Below are positions 5,704 through 62,526 of a stretch of 64,000 nucleotides of DNA, one piece after another. The translations under genes and the position numbers were made by a program. The notes under the pieces are model-generated. The model had not been told where the DNA came from. It searched no databases and saw only the letters and a program-made list of their open reading frames with translations. The stretch lies in sequence record KX828711; one strand, 5' to 3'. This stretch comes from Shigella phage SH7. Each line of letters starts with the position of its first letter. Within the stretch, counting starts at the first letter, position 1.

Positions 5704-7215
5704 ATGACTGACATTAAAGTACATTTTTATGATTTTAGTCACGTGAGAATTGATTGTGAAGAAAGTACATTTCATGAACTCCGTGATTTCTTTAGCTTTG
5801 AAGCTGATGGGTATCGTTTTAATCCGAAATACAAATATGGCCACTGGGATGGACGAATCCGTCTTTTAGATTATAATCGCCTTCTTCCATTCGGCTTAGT
5901 CGGGCAAATTAAAAAGTTCTGTGATAACTTTGGCTATAAAGCCTGGATTGACCCACAAATTAACGAAAAAGAAGAATTATCAAGAAAAGATTTTGATGAA
6001 TGGCTTTCTAAATTAGAAATCTATTCAGGAAATAAAAGAATTGAACCACACTGGTATCAAAAAGATGCAGTGTTCGAAGGATTAGTTAATCGTCGTAGAA
6101 TTCTTAATCTTCCAACATCCGCCGGTAAATCTTTAATTCAAGCTTTGCTTGCACGTTATTATTTGGAAAATTATGAAGGTAAAATTCTTATCATTGTTCC
6201 AACAACTGCTTTAACAACTCAGATGGCTGATGACTTCGTTGACTATCGTTTATTCAGTCATGCAATGATAAAGAAAATCGGTGGAGGAGCATCAAAAGAT
6301 GATAAATATAAAAATGATGCACCAGTCGTTGTTGGTACATGGCAAACTGTAGTAAAACAACCAAAAGAATGGTTCTCACAGTTTGGAATGATGATGAATG
6401 ATGAATGCCATCTTGCTACAGGAAAAAGTATTTCATCTATCATATCAGGTTTAAATAACTGCATGTTCAAATTTGGTCTATCTGGTTCATTACGTGATGG
6501 CAAAGCCAATATCATGCAGTATGTTGGAATGTTTGGTGAAATATTTAAGCCAGTAACGACTTCTAAGTTAATGGAAGATGGACAAGTAACTGAGCTAAAA
6601 ATTAATAGTATTTTTCTTCGCTATCCCGATGAGTTCACTACTAAATTAAAGGGAAAAACTTATCAAGAAGAAATAAAAATTATTACGGGGCTTAGTAAAA
6701 GAAATAAATGGATCGCTAAATTAGCTATTAAGCTTGCGCAAAAAGATGAAAACGCTTTTGTCATGTTTAAACATGTATCGCATGGTAAAGCTATTTTCGA
6801 TTTAATTAAAAATGAATACGATAAAGTTTATTACGTATCAGGAGAAGTTGATACCGAAACCCGCAATATAATGAAAACCTTAGCTGAAAATGGTAAAGGA
6901 ATAATTATAGTAGCTAGTTATGGTGTATTTTCTACTGGTATTTCAGTTAAAAATCTGCATCACGTTGTTTTAGCGCACGGTGTTAAATCTAAAATTATTG
7001 TATTGCAAACAATCGGTCGTGTATTACGTAAGCATGGTTCTAAGACAATAGCAACAGTCTGGGACCTCATAGATGATTGTGGCGTTAAGCCAAAATCTGC
7101 TAATACGAAAAAGAAATATGTTCATTTGAACTATCTTTTAAAACACGGCATTGATCGTATTCAGCGCTACGCAGATGAAAAATTTAATTACGTAATGAAA
7201 ACAGTTAATTTATAA
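5704..7215 (+). CDS. uvsW: UvsW DNA/RNA helicase
   Basis: 503 aa; helicase motifs LPTSAGKS (Walker A) and MMMNDECH (DExH-type); T4 UvsW N-terminus MTDIKVHFYDFSHVRID. Confidence 0.93.
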   Translation: MTDIKVHFYDFSHVRIDCEESTFHELRDFFSFEADGYRFNPKYKYGHWDGRIRLLDYNRLLPFGLVGQIKKFCDNFGYKAWIDPQINEKEELSRKDFDEWLSKLEIYSGNKRIEPHWYQKDAVFEGLVNRRRILNLPTSAGKSLIQALLARYYLENYEGKILIIVPTTALTTQMADDFVDYRLFSHAMIKKIGGGASKDDKYKNDAPVVVGTWQTVVKQPKEWFSQFGMMMNDECHLATGKSISSIISGLNNCMFKFGLSGSLRDGKANIMQYVGMFGEIFKPVTTSKLMEDGQVTELKINSIFLRYPDEFTTKLKGKTYQEEIKIITGLSKRNKWIAKLAIKLAQKDENAFVMFKHVSHGKAIFDLIKNEYDKVYYVSGEVDTETRNIMKTLAENGKGIIIVASYGVFSTGISVKNLHHVVLAHGVKSKIIVLQTIGRVLRKHGSKTIATVWDLIDDCGVKPKSANTKKKYVHLNYLLKHGIDRIQRYADEKFNYVMKTVNL

Positions 7216-16165: not shown

Positions 16166-16219
16166 TCCTCATGTTATGTCAGTAAGACTACTATAACACA
16201 ACACGAGGGACTTGTAAAC
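16166..16219. repeat. 54 bp direct repeat, copy 1 (early promoter plus leader; copy 2 at 31935-31988)
   Basis: 53 of 54 nt identical to 31935-31988. Confidence 0.85.
16190..16219 (-). promoter_or_regulatory. Early promoter for the 96 aa ORF
   Basis: Minus strand GTTTAC then 18 nt then TATAGT, followed by an AGGA RBS and ATG. Confidence 0.65.
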
Positions 16220-18276
16220 TACATTTTGAACTTTTTAGACATTCCGTTAATGTTAACCAAAGAAGCTAAGATTTGAGAAACTTCGTTTTCCTCTTCTTTT
16301 GATTCTTCTACAAGGAATTGATTAAATCCAGCCATTGGACGAACTTCACCAGTTTCCATTAGATGGTCGCCATCATATACTGATTCTTCTAATTGTTCAG
16401 AAGGAGGAACGATTGTACCTTCGATTAGATACTTGTTATAAGCAGTTTCTTTCATAAAGTAAGTACTTACTTTATTAATCTTCAGTAAAATTCCACGTGG
16501 TAGAATAACTTCAGCTTCTGATGGAAATCCTGATAAATGACCCGGAACGATAACTTTAACTCGTTCAGCTCCTTTAATTACCATACCCACGCTAGTTTCA
16601 GCATCTTCATTAGCATATGTAGAATGACTACCCATATGCATCAAATCTTCTGCATCAACGGAACCTTCTCCTTCACCAGAAAATACTGCTCCGGAATCAT
16701 CTAAGGCCATATAATTTTTACCATACTCACCAAAGATATTTGGTTTAAGTGATGTAGATACGAAGTTCTTGAAATAGAACATTTTATTTTCAATGTTATG
16801 ACGCAAAGTTTTAAAAGTAACTTCTTGTCCACGGTAAAGTGTAGTTCCTGGAGGAAGAACTGAACCTTTAGCAAACGCAGAATCCATAGTCTCGATGTGC
16901 TTAATAGCGCGCTCCATGTATTCTTCACGTGTAGAATCAGGTTTACCTAAAAGGAATGAGTTCATTTCAACATACGAATCTGCACAATAATCTTCAATTA
17001 CATCAGATTCAGCCTGAGTCAATCCTTTTGGAGTTACTTCAGTGCTTGCATATTCATACGCCTGAGCAGCGGATTCATCAATTAATTTATAAATGCCATT
17101 CATGACAAATTGAATAATAGCTGTCTTTTCATCTGGCGTAGCTTTAGAACCTTTAACTAAATCATTGACAATTTTCTTAATAACATCAAAGCTATTAGAA
17201 ATATTAATGTCAGCAAGATCGCTTAAAATTTTATCAGTTTTATAATCAAAAAATTCTTTATTCTTTAAATATTCTTGAGAACTTTGATATGTTATATCGC
17301 TCTGCAACTTGATAGATGGATCACGTAAACGTGCATGGGCTAATGCAATATGACTTCGGAAGCTTTCTAGTTCATAATCACTAGATTTAAAACGAGAAGC
17401 ACTCCTCATATCACCGATAGCTCCTTTGCCGAAGTTTGAACCAATCTGAATAACGCCAGAGTTCATTGGTCCTTCTGCTTTATATACCGGAACTTTAGAT
17501 TCAAACTCTTGATATTTCTTAGCAGCAAAGCTATCACCCTGAAGTGAAGCATCAACAGTAGAATATTGAGCTTGTGCTGCTAATCGACGACTAATTTTAG
17601 TTTTCTGAATAACAGCTTGATCCGTACGCTTATCATTTTCTAAAGCAATAGAAGCAGCAACTGCGACAGCTTTAGGAACAGCATTACCTGTTTTAACGTC
17701 TACATAAACATCACCGACTTTCGATTCAACTTTTGTGAATAACTCAGTTGAAATAGGAGGTACACCTGGAATGTCTTCTAAATTGGCATTTTTACGGTAA
17801 ACCATAATATATGCATATTTCTTATCATAGTCCCAGATTTCCTTTAAAAGAACATATCGACCTGCTCCTTTAGTACGTACTAAACGGTCAGCAATAACTT
17901 GCATTTGACGAGCAGCGCCATTTGTTTTACTTTTTAGTACGCGGAATAGGCATGCATCAATTTTATACTGTTTCATTGTTTGAAGAGCAGTATCAAAAAC
18001 AGCATTAATGACGCCAATTGGATTTCCACCCAAGTTTTTAAGCTTAACTAATGATAATTTTTCATTAACACCTATCATTACGATATGCATCATTTTGTCG
18101 CCTGGCTTAACGTTTTTATTCGTATCACCGCCAGAGGTGTATGTACAAAATCTAAATCCAGGAAGCACGCTTTCTTCACCGGCTTGAATAGCAAAAATTT
18201 GTGGTATTTTATGCTTAGGATTTAAGTTAACAACCGGCGCCGAAGCGCCGTCAAATAATTCTGTAATAAGTTCCAT
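16219..18276 (-). CDS. Alt-family ADP-ribosyltransferase paralog
   Basis: 685 aa; shares MELITELFD... N-terminus and conserved blocks with the adjacent alt product; ExE-type motif SEAEVILPRG; central region diverged. Confidence 0.8.
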   Translation of the reverse strand: MELITELFDGASAPVVNLNPKHKIPQIFAIQAGEESVLPGFRFCTYTSGGDTNKNVKPGDKMMHIVMIGVNEKLSLVKLKNLGGNPIGVINAVFDTALQTMKQYKIDACLFRVLKSKTNGAARQMQVIADRLVRTKGAGRYVLLKEIWDYDKKYAYIMVYRKNANLEDIPGVPPISTELFTKVESKVGDVYVDVKTGNAVPKAVAVAASIALENDKRTDQAVIQKTKISRRLAAQAQYSTVDASLQGDSFAAKKYQEFESKVPVYKAEGPMNSGVIQIGSNFGKGAIGDMRSASRFKSSDYELESFRSHIALAHARLRDPSIKLQSDITYQSSQEYLKNKEFFDYKTDKILSDLADINISNSFDVIKKIVNDLVKGSKATPDEKTAIIQFVMNGIYKLIDESAAQAYEYASTEVTPKGLTQAESDVIEDYCADSYVEMNSFLLGKPDSTREEYMERAIKHIETMDSAFAKGSVLPPGTTLYRGQEVTFKTLRHNIENKMFYFKNFVSTSLKPNIFGEYGKNYMALDDSGAVFSGEGEGSVDAEDLMHMGSHSTYANEDAETSVGMVIKGAERVKVIVPGHLSGFPSEAEVILPRGILLKINKVSTYFMKETAYNKYLIEGTIVPPSEQLEESVYDGDHLMETGEVRPMAGFNQFLVEESKEEENEVSQILASLVNINGMSKKFKM

Positions 18277-18279
18277 GAT

Positions 18280-20340
18280 TTATCCTTGAACGAACTTGTA
18301 AGGCATGTTTGTAATATCTATGCAAGACGCAATAATTCCAAGAGATGATTCTACTTTCTGTTTAACATTTGATGAAACAAATGATGCAAAGTCAACTCTG
18401 TCTTCTATTTCAATATCACCTGTCATTGCAACCAATTCACCAGTTTCCATTAGACGGTCACCGTCATAAATGACTGATTCGGTGAGTTCTTCCGTAGTCA
18501 TAACTTCAGCTTGAATAAGCTTGTTGTTAGTTTTGACTGTTCCATCATTGTAAGATGCATCAGTTATTTTATTAACTTTGACCATTAATCCACGTGGCAA
18601 AATGACTTCCATTTCATTTGAAGGCGCTAAACTTCCGCCTGGTAAAACAACATTGACTTTATCAGCCCCAGTAATAACCCATCCAATTCCGACTAAATTA
18701 TCGCTAGAATTAACAAGCCCTTCATCATTTTTATCGATAGAAATGTTTAGACGCTTTTCATCTGGTAAAACACCAACAGCTGAATCAGTCATCCAAGTAC
18801 CAAAAATGTTTGGATATAATGATGTTGATACAAAATTTCTAAAATAAAAAACTCGATTTTTTACCAATGCTTCATATATTGAAGGTAACATTCGCTGTGA
18901 ACGATATAAAGTAATACCCTTTGGCAATCGATCACCATTTTTAAAGGCTGAATCTAAATTATCGATGGCTTGTTCTATTTCAGGTGCTGTTAAAATACTT
19001 GTACGCTCATCTGGATTATATAATCCCAAAAGAGCATTATTCATGTCTACATATCCTGAACCTACATATTCACGAATTCCGCGTTTTTGCGCTGGCGTGT
19101 ATTTAGATGAATCTTTATTTTCGACTATAGAATGCAATGACCATCCAACAGTAAGAGCATATCCACGTAATTCTCTTCGAATAATCTTTGTTTTTATTGC
19201 ATTCCAAGAATTTTGCACTAACTCATTATTCGCAGTGTCTTGATTTAAATGCGAATGCTTGTTAATATTTCTTTCTAACCAAGCACCTTTATATTTTTCT
19301 AAAGTATCATCGACTATAGAAGCAATAGTTTCTAAAGTTTTTATTGAAGTAATAGATTCTTTTCGTAATCTTTCTAAAGCTTTATTTTTTATTTCTGTAT
19401 TAACATCAGATTCTTTATCTTCAGGAATTATAGAAGCTTCTCTGAATGCCATTCCAGCTGTAACACTATTAAGAGCATTCTCTAATGCAAATCCTGAAGT
19501 AGAAATAACAGTTAATTCATTAGCATCAGAAATTAAAGGAGCGTCAGCGGGTTTATTTAATTCTGCTGCTGAAGCCTCAAATTTTTGAAACATCGGCGTT
19601 TCAAATCTAGAAGATTCCAACGACTGACTTTGTGCAATTGCTCTACGGGAAATTTTAACTTTAACGATTACAGCTTGGTCAGAACGTTTATCATTTTCTT
19701 GTGCAATAGATGCTGCAATTGCCTCATTTTTAGTTACTTGGGCTCCAGTATCTTTATTGATATAAACATCACCGACCTTCGATTCAACTTTAGTAAAGAG
19801 CTCGGTACTAATTTCCGGAACTCCTGGAATGTCTTCTAGTGATACATTTTTGCGATGTATAAGAATATATGCATACTTTTTATCATAATCCCAGAGTTCC
19901 TTAAGAAGGACGTATCTGCCACCTGAACGACTACGGATAAGTCTATCAGCAATAACTTGAATTTGTCGAGCTTGGCCAGCAGTTTTAGACTTAAGAATAC
20001 GAAGCATACAAGCATCAATTTTATACTGACGCATCGTTTGCATTGCAACAGTAAAAACTGAATTGATATAATTAATTGGGCTTGGACCAAGACCTTTTAA
20101 TTTAGCAATTGAACCTTTAGCAGTTAATGTAAAAGGAACAATATGCATCATTTTATCGCCCATTTTTAAATCGCGATTAGTATCACCTCCAGATGTATAG
20201 GTACATAAACGAAAGCCTGGTTGTTCAATTGCGTCATCGACATGAACTGAAAAAATTTGTGGTATCTTCTTCTTTGGATTTAAGTTTGTAATCGGAAGAG
20301 TAGTATCTTCGTCAAATAATTCTGTAATAAGTTCCATCAT
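18280..20340 (-). CDS. alt: Alt ADP-ribosyltransferase (virion-packaged)
   Basis: 686 aa (T4 Alt 682 aa); MELITELFDEDTTLPITNL N-terminus; NEMEVILPRG ExE motif; immediately downstream of gene 30 with own late promoter. Confidence 0.85.
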   Translation of the reverse strand: MMELITELFDEDTTLPITNLNPKKKIPQIFSVHVDDAIEQPGFRLCTYTSGGDTNRDLKMGDKMMHIVPFTLTAKGSIAKLKGLGPSPINYINSVFTVAMQTMRQYKIDACMLRILKSKTAGQARQIQVIADRLIRSRSGGRYVLLKELWDYDKKYAYILIHRKNVSLEDIPGVPEISTELFTKVESKVGDVYINKDTGAQVTKNEAIAASIAQENDKRSDQAVIVKVKISRRAIAQSQSLESSRFETPMFQKFEASAAELNKPADAPLISDANELTVISTSGFALENALNSVTAGMAFREASIIPEDKESDVNTEIKNKALERLRKESITSIKTLETIASIVDDTLEKYKGAWLERNINKHSHLNQDTANNELVQNSWNAIKTKIIRRELRGYALTVGWSLHSIVENKDSSKYTPAQKRGIREYVGSGYVDMNNALLGLYNPDERTSILTAPEIEQAIDNLDSAFKNGDRLPKGITLYRSQRMLPSIYEALVKNRVFYFRNFVSTSLYPNIFGTWMTDSAVGVLPDEKRLNISIDKNDEGLVNSSDNLVGIGWVITGADKVNVVLPGGSLAPSNEMEVILPRGLMVKVNKITDASYNDGTVKTNNKLIQAEVMTTEELTESVIYDGDRLMETGELVAMTGDIEIEDRVDFASFVSSNVKQKVESSLGIIASCIDITNMPYKFVQG

Positions 20341-31934: not shown

Positions 31935-31988
31935 TCCTCATGTTATGTCAGTAAGACTACTATAACACAACATGAGGGACTTGTAAAC
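31935..31988. repeat. 54 bp direct repeat, copy 2 (early promoter plus leader of alc)
   Basis: 53 of 54 nt identical to 16166-16219. Confidence 0.85.
31959..31988 (-). promoter_or_regulatory. Early promoter for alc
   Basis: Minus strand GTTTAC then 18 nt then TATAGT, followed by an AGGA RBS. Confidence 0.65.
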
Positions 31989-40840: not shown

Positions 40841-40894
40841 TTTATTCTCCTTAGTTAATAAGGCTATAGTATCACTACTATAGCCTGTTGTAAA

Positions 40895-41260
40895 CTACTT
40901 TTTGAAAGTTTTTCGCAAAATTTCAATGATTTCATCTACATTGTTTTCGTCAACAATGCAGTGAATTTTCGTTACGCCAGAAACCTTGTCTTTAACTTCA
41001 TCTTCTTCAGAAGTTGGTTCTTTATACTCACGAAAACAATGAAATTCATCTTCGCAGACGTTAAAGTAAAAATGCTTTCCATTTGCGCATTCAATGTGTT
41101 TTATTACTTTAAATCCGTCAGCAAAGAAAGATTCTTTAACTTCAAACCATCCGCCATTTTCTTGAATAATTTTAACTATTGATGAATTAGAACGTGGGCG
41201 ATAACTAATAAATGTATCAATAAGTCTTGGAACAAGCTCATACTTTTTGCCATTATACAT
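40895..41260 (-). CDS. Hypothetical protein
   Basis: 121 aa ORF between the frd.x ORFs and gene 32. Confidence 0.6.
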   Translation of the reverse strand: MYNGKKYELVPRLIDTFISYRPRSNSSIVKIIQENGGWFEVKESFFADGFKVIKHIECANGKHFYFNVCEDEFHCFREYKEPTSEEDEVKDKVSGVTKIHCIVDENNVDEIIEILRKTFKK

Positions 41261-41304: not shown

Positions 41305-41532
41305 TTATTGTTCAATCAGTCCCATGTAAAATTCTGCGTCTTCGGAATCCATACCATCACAATATTCATTAGCCATAAAACGAGTGAGGTCTTCAAGAGG
41401 ACCTTCAATAACGATTTGAATACTCCAAAAATTAGAATCTTGTACGCTTGTGATACTAAGTTCAGGATAACGATTACGAATAACTTCTTCAATATATTCA
41501 AAATCAACGATGTCAATATCAACTTTAGCCAT
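41305..41532 (-). CDS. Hypothetical acidic protein
   Basis: Start trimmed to the ATG at 41532 ([11 protein letters not shown]...), which follows the RBS AGAGGAAAA and an early promoter. Confidence 0.5.
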
Positions 41533-41575
41533 ATTATTTTCCTCTTTAATCATCAGCAGTATTGCCGATAGTTGT

Positions 41576-41605
41576 ATAGTACCACAGTCCTTGTGGTATG
41601 TAAAC
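41576..41605 (-). promoter_or_regulatory. Early promoter (part of a terminator-plus-promoter cassette)
   Basis: Minus strand GTTTAC then 18 nt then TACTAT with an AT-rich upstream element; near-identical to the cassettes at 58270-58299 and 61923-61952. Confidence 0.6.
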
Positions 41606-41636
41606 CGTTTTGTGAAAAAATTTTTGAAATAAAAAA

Positions 41637-41655
41637 GGGGACCTCTAGGGTCCCC
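41637..41655 (-). terminator. Rho-independent terminator after gene 32
   Basis: GGGGACC/GGTCCCC hairpin followed on the minus strand by TTTTTTATTT. Confidence 0.75.
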
Positions 41656-41677: not shown

Positions 41678-42586
41678 TTAAAGGTCATTCAAAAGGTCAT
41701 CCAGGTCCGTGTCATCAACACTAGATGAACTGCCAGAGCTTGAGCTCATAAAATCATCTTCAGTTTTTGTATTGAAGTCATCAACATTGAATGCATCCAA
41801 ATCATCAGCAACTTTATCAGCTTTCTTAGCGGCAGTCGCTGCGGCACCGCCCATAGCAGCAGTTCCCATAACTTGACTGAATTTAGTGCTCAGTTCTTCA
41901 AACGATTTGAATTTATCTTTAGAAGTCATTTCAGAAAGGTCAACCATTTGTTCGAACAGTTCTTTCTGGAAAGATTCATCATCAATGTTTGGAATCGCAG
42001 ATTGATTCAGGAATTTAGATTCGTCGTAGTTACTAAAACCAGAAACTTGTTTAACTTTCAGTACAAAGTTAGCACCTTCCCACGGACAAGTTACATCAAC
42101 CGGAGTTTCACCCATTTCAACATCAACTGCAATCATTGCATTGATTTTATCCCAGATTTTCTTACCGAAGCGGTATTTAAATACTTTACCTTCATTTTCT
42201 GGAGCAGCCGGGTCTTTTACTACAAGAATGTTAGCCCAGTAAGAAGTTTTACGTTTAACAAGACCGTACTCTTTATTGTCAGTGTTATACAAATCATTTT
42301 TACTGATGTACTGACATACTGGACAAGAATCGTAATCACCGTGGGTAGATGAACAGTTTTCAATATACCATTTACCATTTTTCTTGAAACCGTGATTTAC
42401 AAGAATTGCAAATGGTGCTTGTTCATCATTTTTAGACGGAAGAAAACGAATTACTGCTTGACCGTTACCCGCATTATCGAGTTTCAGTTTCCACTCGCCT
42501 TTATCTTCAGAAGAAAAACCACCTTTATTTCCAGCCAGTTTAGCCATTTGTGCAGCGAGTTCAGCAGTAGATTTACGTTTAAACAT
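41678..42586 (-). CDS. 32: gp32 single-stranded DNA-binding protein
   Basis: 302 aa (T4 gp32 301 aa); [18 protein letters not shown]-terminus and acidic Ser/Asp-rich C-tail. Confidence 0.95.
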
Positions 42587-42685
42587 TTTTATTTCCTTTT
42601 TAATTTAATTAACAGTTGGTGCTATGACGATGTATGACCTCATAGCTGGTCAGTGAGATAATTATAATCTATTTATAATAAGCAA

Positions 42686-57592: not shown

Positions 57593-58228
57593 TCACAGTT
57601 CAGATGCTACAGTGATTACAGCTTCAATGTTTTCTGCCGAGCGTTTAATGTCAAGATACACATTACCGTTTTTAGCGATTTTACATGACATTCCGATATC
57701 AGTAAATTTCTGAATATGATGTTCCATCATTTTGTATCCAAAAATTCGCATATTTCCATTGTTGTTAATTTCAAAATTACGAATTCCGTGAGTGCGTTTT
57801 TCTAAAATAGCGAGATAATTACTACGATAAGTTTCAACCTTTTTAAGAACAAATCCATTTTCATCTAAAAGTTTTAACATGAGGTCTTTATCTTCTTCCA
57901 TATCGGAAGTAATCTCGCGAGCTTTACGAGTTGCTCGTTTTTTCAGCAGTTCCGGAGCATTTTCCTGTGCATATAAAGTTGCTGCATTTGAAATAATATC
58001 CTGAGCTTCACCAGTAATGATTAATCCATCACCAGATTTCTCCACCAGGCCTTTTTTAATCAATACCCCAATATTACTATTAACTACTGCGTTACCTAAA
58101 TCTGGATGCACCTCACGAACTTCTGCAGCTGTAATGAAATCTTTCTTAGCAATGGTAATTAAAATCGTAGCAGTTTTTTCATTCAGAACATCGTTAGAAG
58201 CTTTGATGATGTAAGTTACTTTAGACAT
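57593..58228 (-). CDS. motA: MotA middle-transcription activator
   Basis: 211 aa as in T4 MotA; MSKVTYIIKASNDVLNEKTATILITIAKKDF. Confidence 0.93.
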   Translation of the reverse strand: MSKVTYIIKASNDVLNEKTATILITIAKKDFITAAEVREVHPDLGNAVVNSNIGVLIKKGLVEKSGDGLIITGEAQDIISNAATLYAQENAPELLKKRATRKAREITSDMEEDKDLMLKLLDENGFVLKKVETYRSNYLAILEKRTHGIRNFEINNNGNMRIFGYKMMEHHIQKFTDIGMSCKIAKNGNVYLDIKRSAENIEAVITVASEL

Positions 58229-58269
58229 TTTCTAATCTCCGTAATTCTGTATCAGTAGTTGATAGTTGT

Positions 58270-58299
58270 ATAGTACCACAGTATGCTTTGGTTGTAAAC
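58270..58299 (-). promoter_or_regulatory. Early promoter for motA (terminator-plus-promoter cassette)
   Basis: Minus strand GTTTAC then 18 nt then TACTAT with the conserved upstream TTTTTCACAAAAC element. Confidence 0.6.
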
Positions 58300-58329
58300 C
58301 GTTTTGTGAAAAAATTTTTGAAATAAAAA

Positions 58330-58349
58330 GGGAGAGCCAAGGCTCTCCC
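58330..58349 (-). terminator. Rho-independent terminator after the gene 52 operon
   Basis: GGGAGAGCC/GGCTCTCCC 9 bp stem followed on the minus strand by TTTTTATTT. Confidence 0.7.
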
Positions 58350-58354
58350 TAAAA

Positions 58355-58504
58355 TTACTGCATGACTGTGATAACTGTCATGATAACACGTTGAATTCCG
58401 AATGCAAGAAGACCTCCTGCTACGGCTGGAACAACACCTAAACCCGCCAGTAAAATGCTACCAGATACTAATGCAGTGCTTGTAATACCTATGAATGGAC
58501 TCAT
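58355..58504 (-). CDS. Small hydrophobic membrane protein (below ORF-track cut-off)
   Basis: 49 aa MSPFIGITSTALVSGSILLAGLGVVPAVAGGLLAFG...; ATG overlaps the gene 52 stop (ATGA). Confidence 0.45.
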   Translation of the reverse strand: MSPFIGITSTALVSGSILLAGLGVVPAVAGGLLAFGIQRVIMTVITVMQ

Positions 58505-61381: not shown

Positions 61382-61409
61382 TTTGTGTTCCTCCGTAGTT
61401 GATAGGGTA

Positions 61410-61439
61410 ATACTACCACGGAGGAACAGTCTTGTAAAC
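61410..61439 (-). promoter_or_regulatory. Early promoter for the 37 aa membrane ORF
   Basis: Minus strand GTTTAC then 18 nt then TAGTAT; 9 bp inverted repeat TTCCTCCGT/ACGGAGGAA (61388-61426) brackets the -10. Confidence 0.55.
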
Positions 61440-61624: not shown

Positions 61625-61888
61625 TCATAGTTCAATCTCAGCGATTTTCATTTCATTACTATTAATAGCCGCTTTAAGACTATCTGAAAGAATTACATTC
61701 CAGTGGTCATTCATATGGCCATTAACTAAGCGTGTAATTTCTTCAGGAGTTGAAAAATAAGGTTGATCAGACTCCCAATGTGATAATCCTAAGCGAGTAT
61801 AAATCATGCCTTCATCATCGCTAGAATATTCAACTGACACAAACTCATCAGTTATTTTATGTTTAGCGTAATAAAATTTAAATTTCAT
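61625..61888 (-). CDS. Hypothetical protein
   Basis: Start trimmed to the ATG at 61888 (MKFKFYYAKHK...), 87 aa; the ORF-track extension to 61987 covers the promoter. Confidence 0.55.
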   Translation of the reverse strand: MKFKFYYAKHKITDEFVSVEYSSDDEGMIYTRLGLSHWESDQPYFSTPEEITRLVNGHMNDHWNVILSDSLKAAINSNEMKIAEIEL

Positions 61889-61922
61889 TTTATTCTCCAA
61901 ATCCATATCAGTTGATAGTTGT

Positions 61923-61952
61923 ATAGTACCACGGTCCTTGTGGTATGTAAAC
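61923..61952 (-). promoter_or_regulatory. Early promoter (third copy of the conserved promoter cassette)
   Basis: Minus strand GTTTAC then 18 nt then TACTAT, near-identical over about 60 nt to the promoters at 41576-41605 and 58270-58299. Confidence 0.6.
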
Positions 61953-61968
61953 TGTTTTGTGAAATTTT

Positions 61969-62526
61969 TTAAATGGAAAGATACCATCCGTTGTAGTTGC
62001 TTTTTCTTACAACCTTACGAAGGTCTTCTCTGTCACCGATGAACTTCGGAGTGTACTGGATGACACCTGGATGAATTTCTTTAGTGTTGAATATAATTAT
62101 ACAGTCAGCGACTTGATGATTTAGAATGGGTCCTAGATTTATTCCAGAACCGTATGGATACTCTCCGCTGCATCCTGTTGTTACAGAAATCCAACGTGAG
62201 TCAGTTTGGTGTGTCTTAACTTCTACACGAAGCCCGCAGTATCTTGGATGCGCCAATACATCCCATGCGTATGTATACGGGTCATTAACATCTTCTTGAC
62301 CTTTATTGACATATCCGCTTAGCCAATCTGCCACAAAAAACTCTGCGTACACAGCGATACGGCATCTTTCGATAACTTCTGCTTTATCCTGGTTCGGGTT
62401 TTGTTTTAAAGAGTATCTTGCTGTATCAGCAATTTTGACCTTCATTTCACTAGTCAAGTCACTGTTCGATAGGGTAAATGTCGGAATCTGAAATAGTCTC
62501 TGTAAACCCGGATTCGTTTTCTGCAT
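61969..62526 (-). CDS. denB: Endonuclease IV (DenB)
   Basis: 185 aa as in T4 DenB; lies between rIIB and ndd. Confidence 0.9.
   Translation of the reverse strand: MQKTNPGLQRLFQIPTFTLSNSDLTSEMKVKIADTARYSLKQNPNQDKAEVIERCRIAVYAEFFVADWLSGYVNKGQEDVNDPYTYAWDVLAHPRYCGLRVEVKTHQTDSRWISVTTGCSGEYPYGSGINLGPILNHQVADCIIIFNTKEIHPGVIQYTPKFIGDREDLRKVVRKSNYNGWYLSI

Follow-up and report, generated by a model that had tools for sequence, protein, structure and literature searches.

Three near-identical cassettes on the minus strand of the Shigella phage SH7 genome (sequence record KX828711) are best read, with a probability of about 0.8, as sigma-70 early-promoter cassettes, two of which are fused to a preceding terminator. 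Their likeness would reflect constraint together with ectopic recombination or gene conversion. The analysis covered a stretch of 64,000 nucleotides of this genome (the window), segments of which were 96–99% identical to complete Tequatrovirus genomes (e.g., T2, EPIMRB01 and the slur phages), and on this sequence identity the window is assigned to Tequatrovirus (T4/T2-like). The region from ∼105 to 168.9 kb in T4 coordinates is its rough counterpart, with the early genes on the minus strand. Sites were assigned from the annotations of T4, T2 and ime09 and from the ORF list of the window. The features discussed below are the following.

41567..41641, minus strand: c41.6, predicted early promoter of frd.3, comprising T-tract/UP, -35, spacer, extended -10 and +1 block; reference member of repeat family D1
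41576..41605, minus strand: promoter core of c41.6, read from the sequence as GTTTACA, the 14-nt spacer S1 (TACCACAAGGACTG) and TGG-TACTAT
41592-41598 and 41580-41586, minus strand: inverted-repeat arms of c41.6, read from the sequence
41637..41655, minus strand: predicted intrinsic terminator hairpin of gene 32, GGGGACC-CTAGA-GGTCCCC with a T-run (terminator scan)
41678..42586, minus strand: gene 32, single-stranded DNA-binding protein, upstream of c41.6
41305..41532, minus strand: frd.3, 75 aa, phrog_1764, predicted to be driven by c41.6; conserved cargo
40895-41260, minus strand: frd.2, the ORF beyond frd.3
58261..58335, minus strand: c58.3, predicted early promoter of motA with spacer allele S2 (ACCAAAGCATACTG); member of the direct-repeat family
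58329..58350, minus strand: predicted intrinsic terminator hairpin after motA.1, AGGGAGAGCC-TTGG-GGCTCTCCCT with a T-run (terminator scan)
58355..58504, minus strand: motA.1, 49 aa, last ORF of the gene 52 transcription unit, upstream of c58.3
57593..58228, minus strand: motA, predicted to be driven by c58.3
61914..61988, minus strand: c61.9, predicted early promoter immediately behind denB, spacer allele S1 (TACCACAAGGACCG), no terminator; member of the direct-repeat family
61969..62526, minus strand: denB, upstream of c61.9
61625..61888, minus strand: ORF B, 87 aa, phrog_2390, directly behind c61.9; variable cargo
61386..61439, minus strand: diverged fourth member, predicted early promoter of an ndd.4-like ORF (pattern match at 61410-61439)

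Three repeated cassettes between genes

Matches to GTTTAC-N18-TAnnAT, whose multiple alignment the initial annotation of this DNA had proposed, were collected across the window. Eleven were found against 0.31 expected, and they included all four sites that had been named beforehand: 41576-41605, 58270-58299, 61923-61952 and 61410-61439, all on the minus strand. The 19-mer GTGGTACTATACAACTATC occurred exactly three times in the window (41567-41585, 58261-58279 and 61914-61932) and was absent from 100 shuffles, even when 3 mismatches were allowed; an exact 19-mer common to the three cassettes is beyond chance expectation. The cassettes constituted the first-listed direct-repeat family of the window, with a length of 75 nt and 87% and 75% ungapped identity to the reference copy. 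As the ungapped comparison understates c61.9 (3-nt indel upstream), gapped alignments were used instead, and these gave 66/72 identical positions for c41.6 and c58.3, 63/73 for c41.6 and c61.9, and 59/75 for c58.3 and c61.9. Overall, the three cassettes were 79–92% identical across ∼72 nt, which together with the common 19-mer bears out the ∼60 nt of near-identity that had been claimed for them. When compared over 95 nt without gaps, pairs of cassettes were 57–73% identical, and all other pairs among the 12 early promoters of the window averaged 42%. Each copy contains TTTACA-N17-TACTAT with a TG two bases before the -10 element, and on these elements the three are classed as strong T4-type early promoters, two of them behind putative terminators.

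All three cassettes are intergenic and lie between the gene 32 stop codon and the frd.3 ATG, between the motA.1 stop codon and the motA ATG, and between the denB stop codon and the ORF B ATG. The hairpin behind gene 32 (41655-41637) has 7 bp, 6 of them GC, followed by a T-run, and a fold of -14.3 kcal/mol. The hairpin behind motA.1 (58350-58329) has 9 bp and a T-run, with a fold of -16.5 kcal/mol (z -3.7). The initial annotation had placed terminators behind two cassettes, after gene 32 and after gene 52. Both hairpins with their T-runs were found, but the second comes after motA.1, an ORF overlapping the gene 52 end, rather than immediately after gene 52. The hairpins had also been presented as part of the shared repeat, and this part did not stand: the two are unrelated in sequence and not homologous to each other, and near-identity begins at the T-tract after each. 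The third cassette, c61.9, has no terminator because the denB stop codon (61969-61971) falls inside its A/T-rich upstream region; only the 6-bp spacer hairpin and a weak stem of -4.2 kcal/mol without a T-run are present. An Rfam scan of the whole window returned no family at gathering score. On the other side of gene 32, the interval to gene 59 (42587-42685) is without the segG homing-endonuclease gene, unlike in T4, and has the T2-like arrangement.

T4 has orthologous promoters at the same sites, at 146875 (frd.3), 163673 (motA) and 167086 (ndd.6), and at all three the flanking genes are alike and the sequence is near-identical. By this comparison the three cassettes form a subfamily of the classical T4 early promoters. 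A census of the early promoters, which covered T4 outside the 149–160 kb late region, found the -10/+1 core GGTACTATACAACTATC at seven promoters, namely imm.1, nrdC.8, nrdC.10, e.8, frd.3, motA and ndd.6, of which the imm.1 promoter lies just after gene 43. The upstream block TTTCACAAAAYNGTTTAC was present at six of the seven, and the mobD.5 promoter was one base off the core, giving a family of seven or eight copies per genome over the part of T4 covered. In one IMG/VR phage genome of 169,650 nt the 17-nt core had eight exact copies.

The start of the c41.6 transcript is predicted at an A near 41569. In T4, frd.3 RNA is among the most abundant NAD-capped transcripts and motA is named as an early transcript (bioRxiv 10.1101/2024.04.04.588121). 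As an NAD-capped RNA, the frd.3 RNA must be a primary transcript starting with A, which fits a start at the A of CAACT-A-TC and gives indirect support from T4.

From the sequence we infer the promoter and terminator activities in SH7, as well as the exact start sites and the recombination mechanism. The GC-rich hairpin with its T-run would end the upstream transcript (gene 32 or the gene 52–motA.1 unit), and the T/A-rich stretch of the terminator probably doubles as UP element. After the UP region would come GTTTACA as the -35 element, TGG-TACTAT as the extended -10 element, with 17 bp between the two hexamers, and the conserved ACAACTATC block, with the A seven bases past the -10 element as the probable start. 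The SD and the start codon of the driven gene (frd.3, motA or the 87-aa ORF) would be carried by a short leader, and host RNA polymerase would fire the cassettes immediately after infection.

Gene content at the cassette borders

A comparison with relatives had been suggested as a further check, and gene content and intergenic sequence were found to vary at or next to the cassettes rather than being identical at all of these sites. The ORFs that had been put forward as recently shuffled cargo turned out to be conserved. T4 and T2 both have frd.3 and frd.2 in syntenic positions, and a query from the end of gene 32 to the start of frd.3 was at least 80% covered in 479 of the 499 matching records. 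For the small membrane ORFs near 61.3 kb (ndd.4 region), T4 has a collinear arrangement with 95.5% identity. At c41.6 only the spacer varies among relatives, not the cargo.

At the denB site the promoter is followed by ORF A (68 aa), ORF B (87 aa) and ndd.6 in ime09, by ORF B and ndd.6 in the window, and by an 8-codon remnant (MKIAEIEL) and ndd.6 in T4. This remnant is unannotated in T4, where it lies between the promoter and ndd.6 (L002 ∼6994-7020; ∼166993-167019 of the T4 record). It consists of the cassette start codon fused to the last codons of the 87-aa ORF found in the window and ime09, and is therefore a deletion scar. The indel junctions at the denB site lie at TAAAATGAAA-type microhomologies of 8–10 nt in the SD/start (ribosome-binding) region, and their sequence indicates that these indels did not arise by recombination of one full cassette with another. 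Such indels would stem from short microhomologies that are A/T-rich or lie in ribosome-binding sites. Across the sequenced relatives, ORF B was found in 267 records compared with 495 that contain denB.

The motA site is in a simple state in the window and in T4. In ∼138 records (28%) it holds an extra module, a 75-aa ORF with a second early promoter, that has a repeated 22-nt leader at its borders and was at least 99% identical to the query in 129 of them. The 75-aa ORF between motA.1 and motA corresponds to phrog_10955 (L017 3279-3330 and L019 1230-1700, IMG/VR relatives). In one motA-site variant (relative L017) the first cassette is without T-tract, UP region and -35 element, and such a 'half' cassette would let transcription read through from gene 52.

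Indels were also present on both sides of the frd.1 promoter (40866-40895), the next one downstream of c41.6. In EPIMRB01 (L035 1599-1859) an 86-aa ORF (phrog_4423) is inserted in the UP region of this promoter, and in T4 (L004 2560-2644) an 84-nt insert between the promoter and the SD encodes an unannotated 22-aa hydrophobic peptide. Comparison of the window with T4 shows a compensatory change from C-G to G-C in the arms of the frd.1 promoter hairpin. From these comparisons, the variable cargo comprises ORF B (61625-61888), the motA-site module, which the window lacks, and the indels at the frd.1 promoter. All PHROG matches of the cargo ORFs were to families of unknown function.

Evidence for exchange of promoter blocks between dispersed copies

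The 14-nt spacer is generally unconserved: when T4 early promoters were compared pairwise (465 pairs), their spacers agreed at a median of 4/14 positions, and only 4 pairs had 11 or more identical positions. The orthologous frd.3 promoters of T4 and the window agree at 5/14 spacer positions, yet non-orthologous pairs agree at 13 or 14. The window frd.3 spacer matches the window denB-site spacer at 13/14, the T4 frd.3 spacer matches that of T4 nrdC.10 at 14/14, and the T2 frd.3 spacer matches that of T4 e.8 at 13/14. Three spacer types were seen at the frd.3 site: the window and ∼17% of relatives have the ndd.6-site type, T4 has that of nrdC.10 and T2 that of e.8. Moreover, the window frd.3 site is identical to the ime09 denB site over ∼52 nt of the cassette, spacer included. 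Of 479 records, 82 (17%) combine S1 with the frd.3 leader, leaving ∼83% without it, and S1 was present at the denB site in every genome examined. The simplest reading is that the frd.3 site of the window was converted from a denB-site copy, where direction and timing of the exchange would follow from parsimony only. Exchange at orthologous sites between co-infecting phages would spread alleles as well, and is taken together here with ectopic events within a genome.

Other blocks also recurred at non-orthologous sites. The leader AACT(AC)TGATACGGATTTGGAGAATAAAATG is common to the ndd.6, imm.1 and nrdC.10 sites, the nrdC.10 site of a 171.9-kb phage (IMG/VR, L038) bears a hairpin like the gene 32 terminator, and in one IMG/VR relative (L031) the -10/+1 block of the ndd.4 promoter is the family core. 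At 5870-5995 of L038 a perfect palindrome, GGGGACCTCTAGAGGTCCCC, stands with an S3-spacer cassette in the nrdC.11–nrdC.10 region, with extra ORFs on both sides; the ORF upstream of it, of 166 aa, has a match to a PHROG with the annotation RNA polymerase ADP-ribosylase. This locus was considered as a gene 32 site with different cargo and was rejected as such, since inspection of its ORFs identified the nrdC.11–nrdC.10 region.

Pure functional convergence on an extended early-promoter consensus (UP, GTTTAC, TGn, -10 and +1), with no exchange, would also make promoters alike, and part of the likeness of the cassettes does appear to be ordinary promoter consensus. T4 early promoters have a consensus beyond the -35 and -10 elements (PMC2988021), and GTTTAC is present in all 12 early promoters of the window, TG-n-TAnnAT in most of them. 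In T4-like contigs that are more distant, the TTTCACAAAAC-GTTTAC block recurs beside spacers and leaders that are unrelated. An IMG/VR scan with TTTCACAAAAYNGTTTAC gave many chance matches in unrelated viruses and was interpreted by context, its counts being unusable for frequencies. However, because of the spacer data convergence is largely refuted as the sole cause. In addition, non-orthologous sites have leaders in common as far as the start codon, and even a terminator hairpin; of the window's 12 early promoters, only 3 contain the c41.6-type variant. Convergence alone is therefore regarded as unlikely.

A second alternative is that the three copies are relics of an old segmental duplication that carried a gene with its regulatory region to three places. 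The copies are same-strand direct repeats, as such a duplication would leave them, but homology ends at the cassette borders, and the flanks 32/frd.3, motA.1/motA and denB/ORF B are mutually unrelated. Other loci matched the window only within the cassette itself, and the copies are too similar, given the divergence of the spacer at orthologous sites. Segmental duplication is contradicted because flanking homology is lacking, and we consider it the most improbable of the explanations.

The spacer was further inspected for the inverted repeat TACCAC(A)...(T)GTGGTA, which the initial annotation had reported in the 41.6 and 61.9 kb copies. It is present in both, with 7 bp in c41.6 and 6 bp in c61.9, and c58.3 lacks it. 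The conserved blocks, and this repeat in particular, could be a shared operator that binds a phage or host factor co-regulating the genes behind the cassettes, for instance in early-promoter shut-off, the mechanism of which is stated as not known (PMC2988021), and similar CCACAAGGATGTGG spacers occur at two further T4 early promoters (T4 2458 and 50973). Against this, the right arm of the repeat is merely the extended -10 element (TG-G-TA), and the third near-identical copy is without it. The spacer fold was significant in c41.6 only (z -3.45), partly owing to a second hairpin in the leader, and c61.9 (z +0.4) and c58.3 (z +0.3) folded no better than shuffled sequence. The spacer at the frd.3 site is freely replaced by unrelated alleles, S1 being absent from most relatives, and a candidate protein that would bind it did not emerge. 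On the folding of c61.9 and c58.3 and on the identity of the right arm, a role of the spacer repeat as functional hairpin or operator was rejected, and an operator as the source of the likeness is considered very improbable.

The preferred explanation remains constraint combined with exchange. Constraint to the strong T4 early-promoter consensus would keep the cassettes alike, and so would repeated ectopic recombination or gene conversion among the seven or eight dispersed copies. The T4 recombination machinery would use 50–75 nt of dispersed homology for gene conversion and occasional crossovers. Such exchange would turn the copies into mosaics in which hairpin, UP region, spacer, -10/+1 block and leader can each be swapped, and would also make the cassettes preferred borders for the gain and loss of small accessory ORFs. 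A role in recombination is supported by the spacer variation at the frd.3 site, the uneven presence of ORF B and the motA-site module, whereas the microhomology junctions at the denB site and the conserved cargo of c41.6 count against this explanation. In its more specific form, T4 early-promoter cassettes may well evolve as mosaics by ongoing gene conversion within the genome, with the frd.3 spacer replaced at least three times. It is to the same degree plausible that hairpins, -10/+1 blocks and leaders are swapped in the same manner as spacers. If this is true, the cassettes would form a natural promoter-shuffling system able to retune conserved early genes, and not only to move accessory ORFs.

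Other early promoters and comparison with known systems

The fourth, more diverged member announced at 61410-61439 was recovered as a GTTTAC-N18-TAnnAT match before the ndd.4-like ORF. Over 61386-61439 it forms a 14-bp hairpin that spans the -10 element and has its 3' arm over the SD (-22.8 kcal/mol, z -4.9). A second near-identical cassette pair was observed on the minus strand at 31935-31988 and 16166-16219, before alc and alt.-3, with 98% identity over 54 nt. Both members have the layout GTTTAC, spacer, TATAGT and a long hairpin with its 3' arm over the SD (z -6.1 and -4.7), and in T4 the same 54-nt pair (136336 and 123093) is 100% identical. The window also contains two tandem full-length Alt-like ORFs on the minus strand (16219-18276 and 18280-20340; 685 and 686 aa, 42% mutual identity). 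At the corresponding place T4 has a single alt, together with alt.-1 and alt.-2 as short leftovers of a duplicate gene. Among the 12 early promoters, six (61439, 40895, 28685, 24750, 31988 and 16219) have a hairpin across the -10 element and the start region with z of -4 or lower. The 3' arm pairs with the SD at 61439, 25142, 31988 and 16219, of which 25142 has a weaker fold (z -1.7). In such promoters, the SD could be masked in RNA that reads through from upstream, but not in RNA initiated within the hairpin. An SD-masking hairpin is absent from the three near-identical cassettes.

In T4, hairpins that mask a ribosome-binding site and contain an internal promoter are known for genes e, soc and I-TevI, with middle or late promoters. 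The neighbouring promoters at 61439, 25142, 31988 and 16219 resemble these in having a hairpin that spans the -10 element and covers the SD. They differ in that the promoters within the hairpins are predicted early ones here, and middle or late ones in T4.

T4 early promoters are of the UP/-35/TGn/-10 class with extra consensus regions (Hinton, 2010; PMC2988021), and the window cassettes have the same elements, the same spacing and the same neighbour genes. The differences from T4 concern the frd.3 promoter, which in the window has a spacer found in T4 at the ndd.6 site only, and the gene behind the denB-site promoter, which in the window is the 87-aa ORF that is missing from T4.

Strong T4 early promoters fused to terminators have been proposed before as drivers of modular gene shuffling. 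The present comparison places three predicted borders of early transcription units in the SH7 genome, and sorts the neighbouring ORFs into a variable one (the 87-aa ORF at 61625-61888) and conserved ones (frd.3, frd.2 and motA). It also offers a clean natural example of promoter pieces exchanged between dispersed copies. Repeated spacer replacement at the conserved frd.3 site was not found in PMC2839356 or PMC4122927, and would be a modest new detail. With ∼480 sequenced relatives, spacer exchange could become a population-scale test of the recombination model for PeSL (promoter-early stem-loop) cassettes.

PeSL cassettes have been described in T4-type phages (Arbiol et al., 2010, PMC2839356; Comeau et al., 2014, PMC4122927), with the ndd region among the published examples. 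Their T4/PST consensus is TTTACW-N17-TAYWAT with a stem-loop just upstream (PMC4122927, PMC2839356), and a further trait attributed to them is the excision of mini-circles by recombination between neighbouring cassettes (PMC2839356). The window cassettes depart from this description in three respects. One of the three copies, c61.9, has no terminator stem-loop, the conserved span is ∼52–75 nt as compared with ∼100 bp, and the denB-site indels have junctions at ribosome-binding-site microhomologies instead of being cassette-to-cassette crossovers. Several other traits match. The initial annotation had read the sites as PeSL cassettes, and this reading agrees with the A/T-rich region, the sigma-70-type early promoter (TTTACA-N17-TACTAT in all three), the putative terminator stem-loop just upstream in c41.6 and c58.3, and the SD and start codon of the next gene. 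All three lie, like PeSL cassettes, between an upstream stop codon and the next SD and start codon, and they contain the further PeSL sequence, as TTTTTTATTTCAAAAATTTTTTCACAAAAC in c41.6 and c58.3 and as CCATTTAAAAAATTTCACAAAAC in c61.9. The window cassettes are likewise present in several copies that are conserved over tens of bases, well beyond the hexamers, and stand beside indels of small ORFs of unknown function among close relatives; these were found at c61.9, c58.3 and the frd.1 promoter, but not for the cargo of c41.6. Degraded 'half' copies in relatives (L017) are a further likeness. The sequence comparison supports an assignment of the cassettes to the published PeSL class, and as such they represent an already known feature of T4-type phages.
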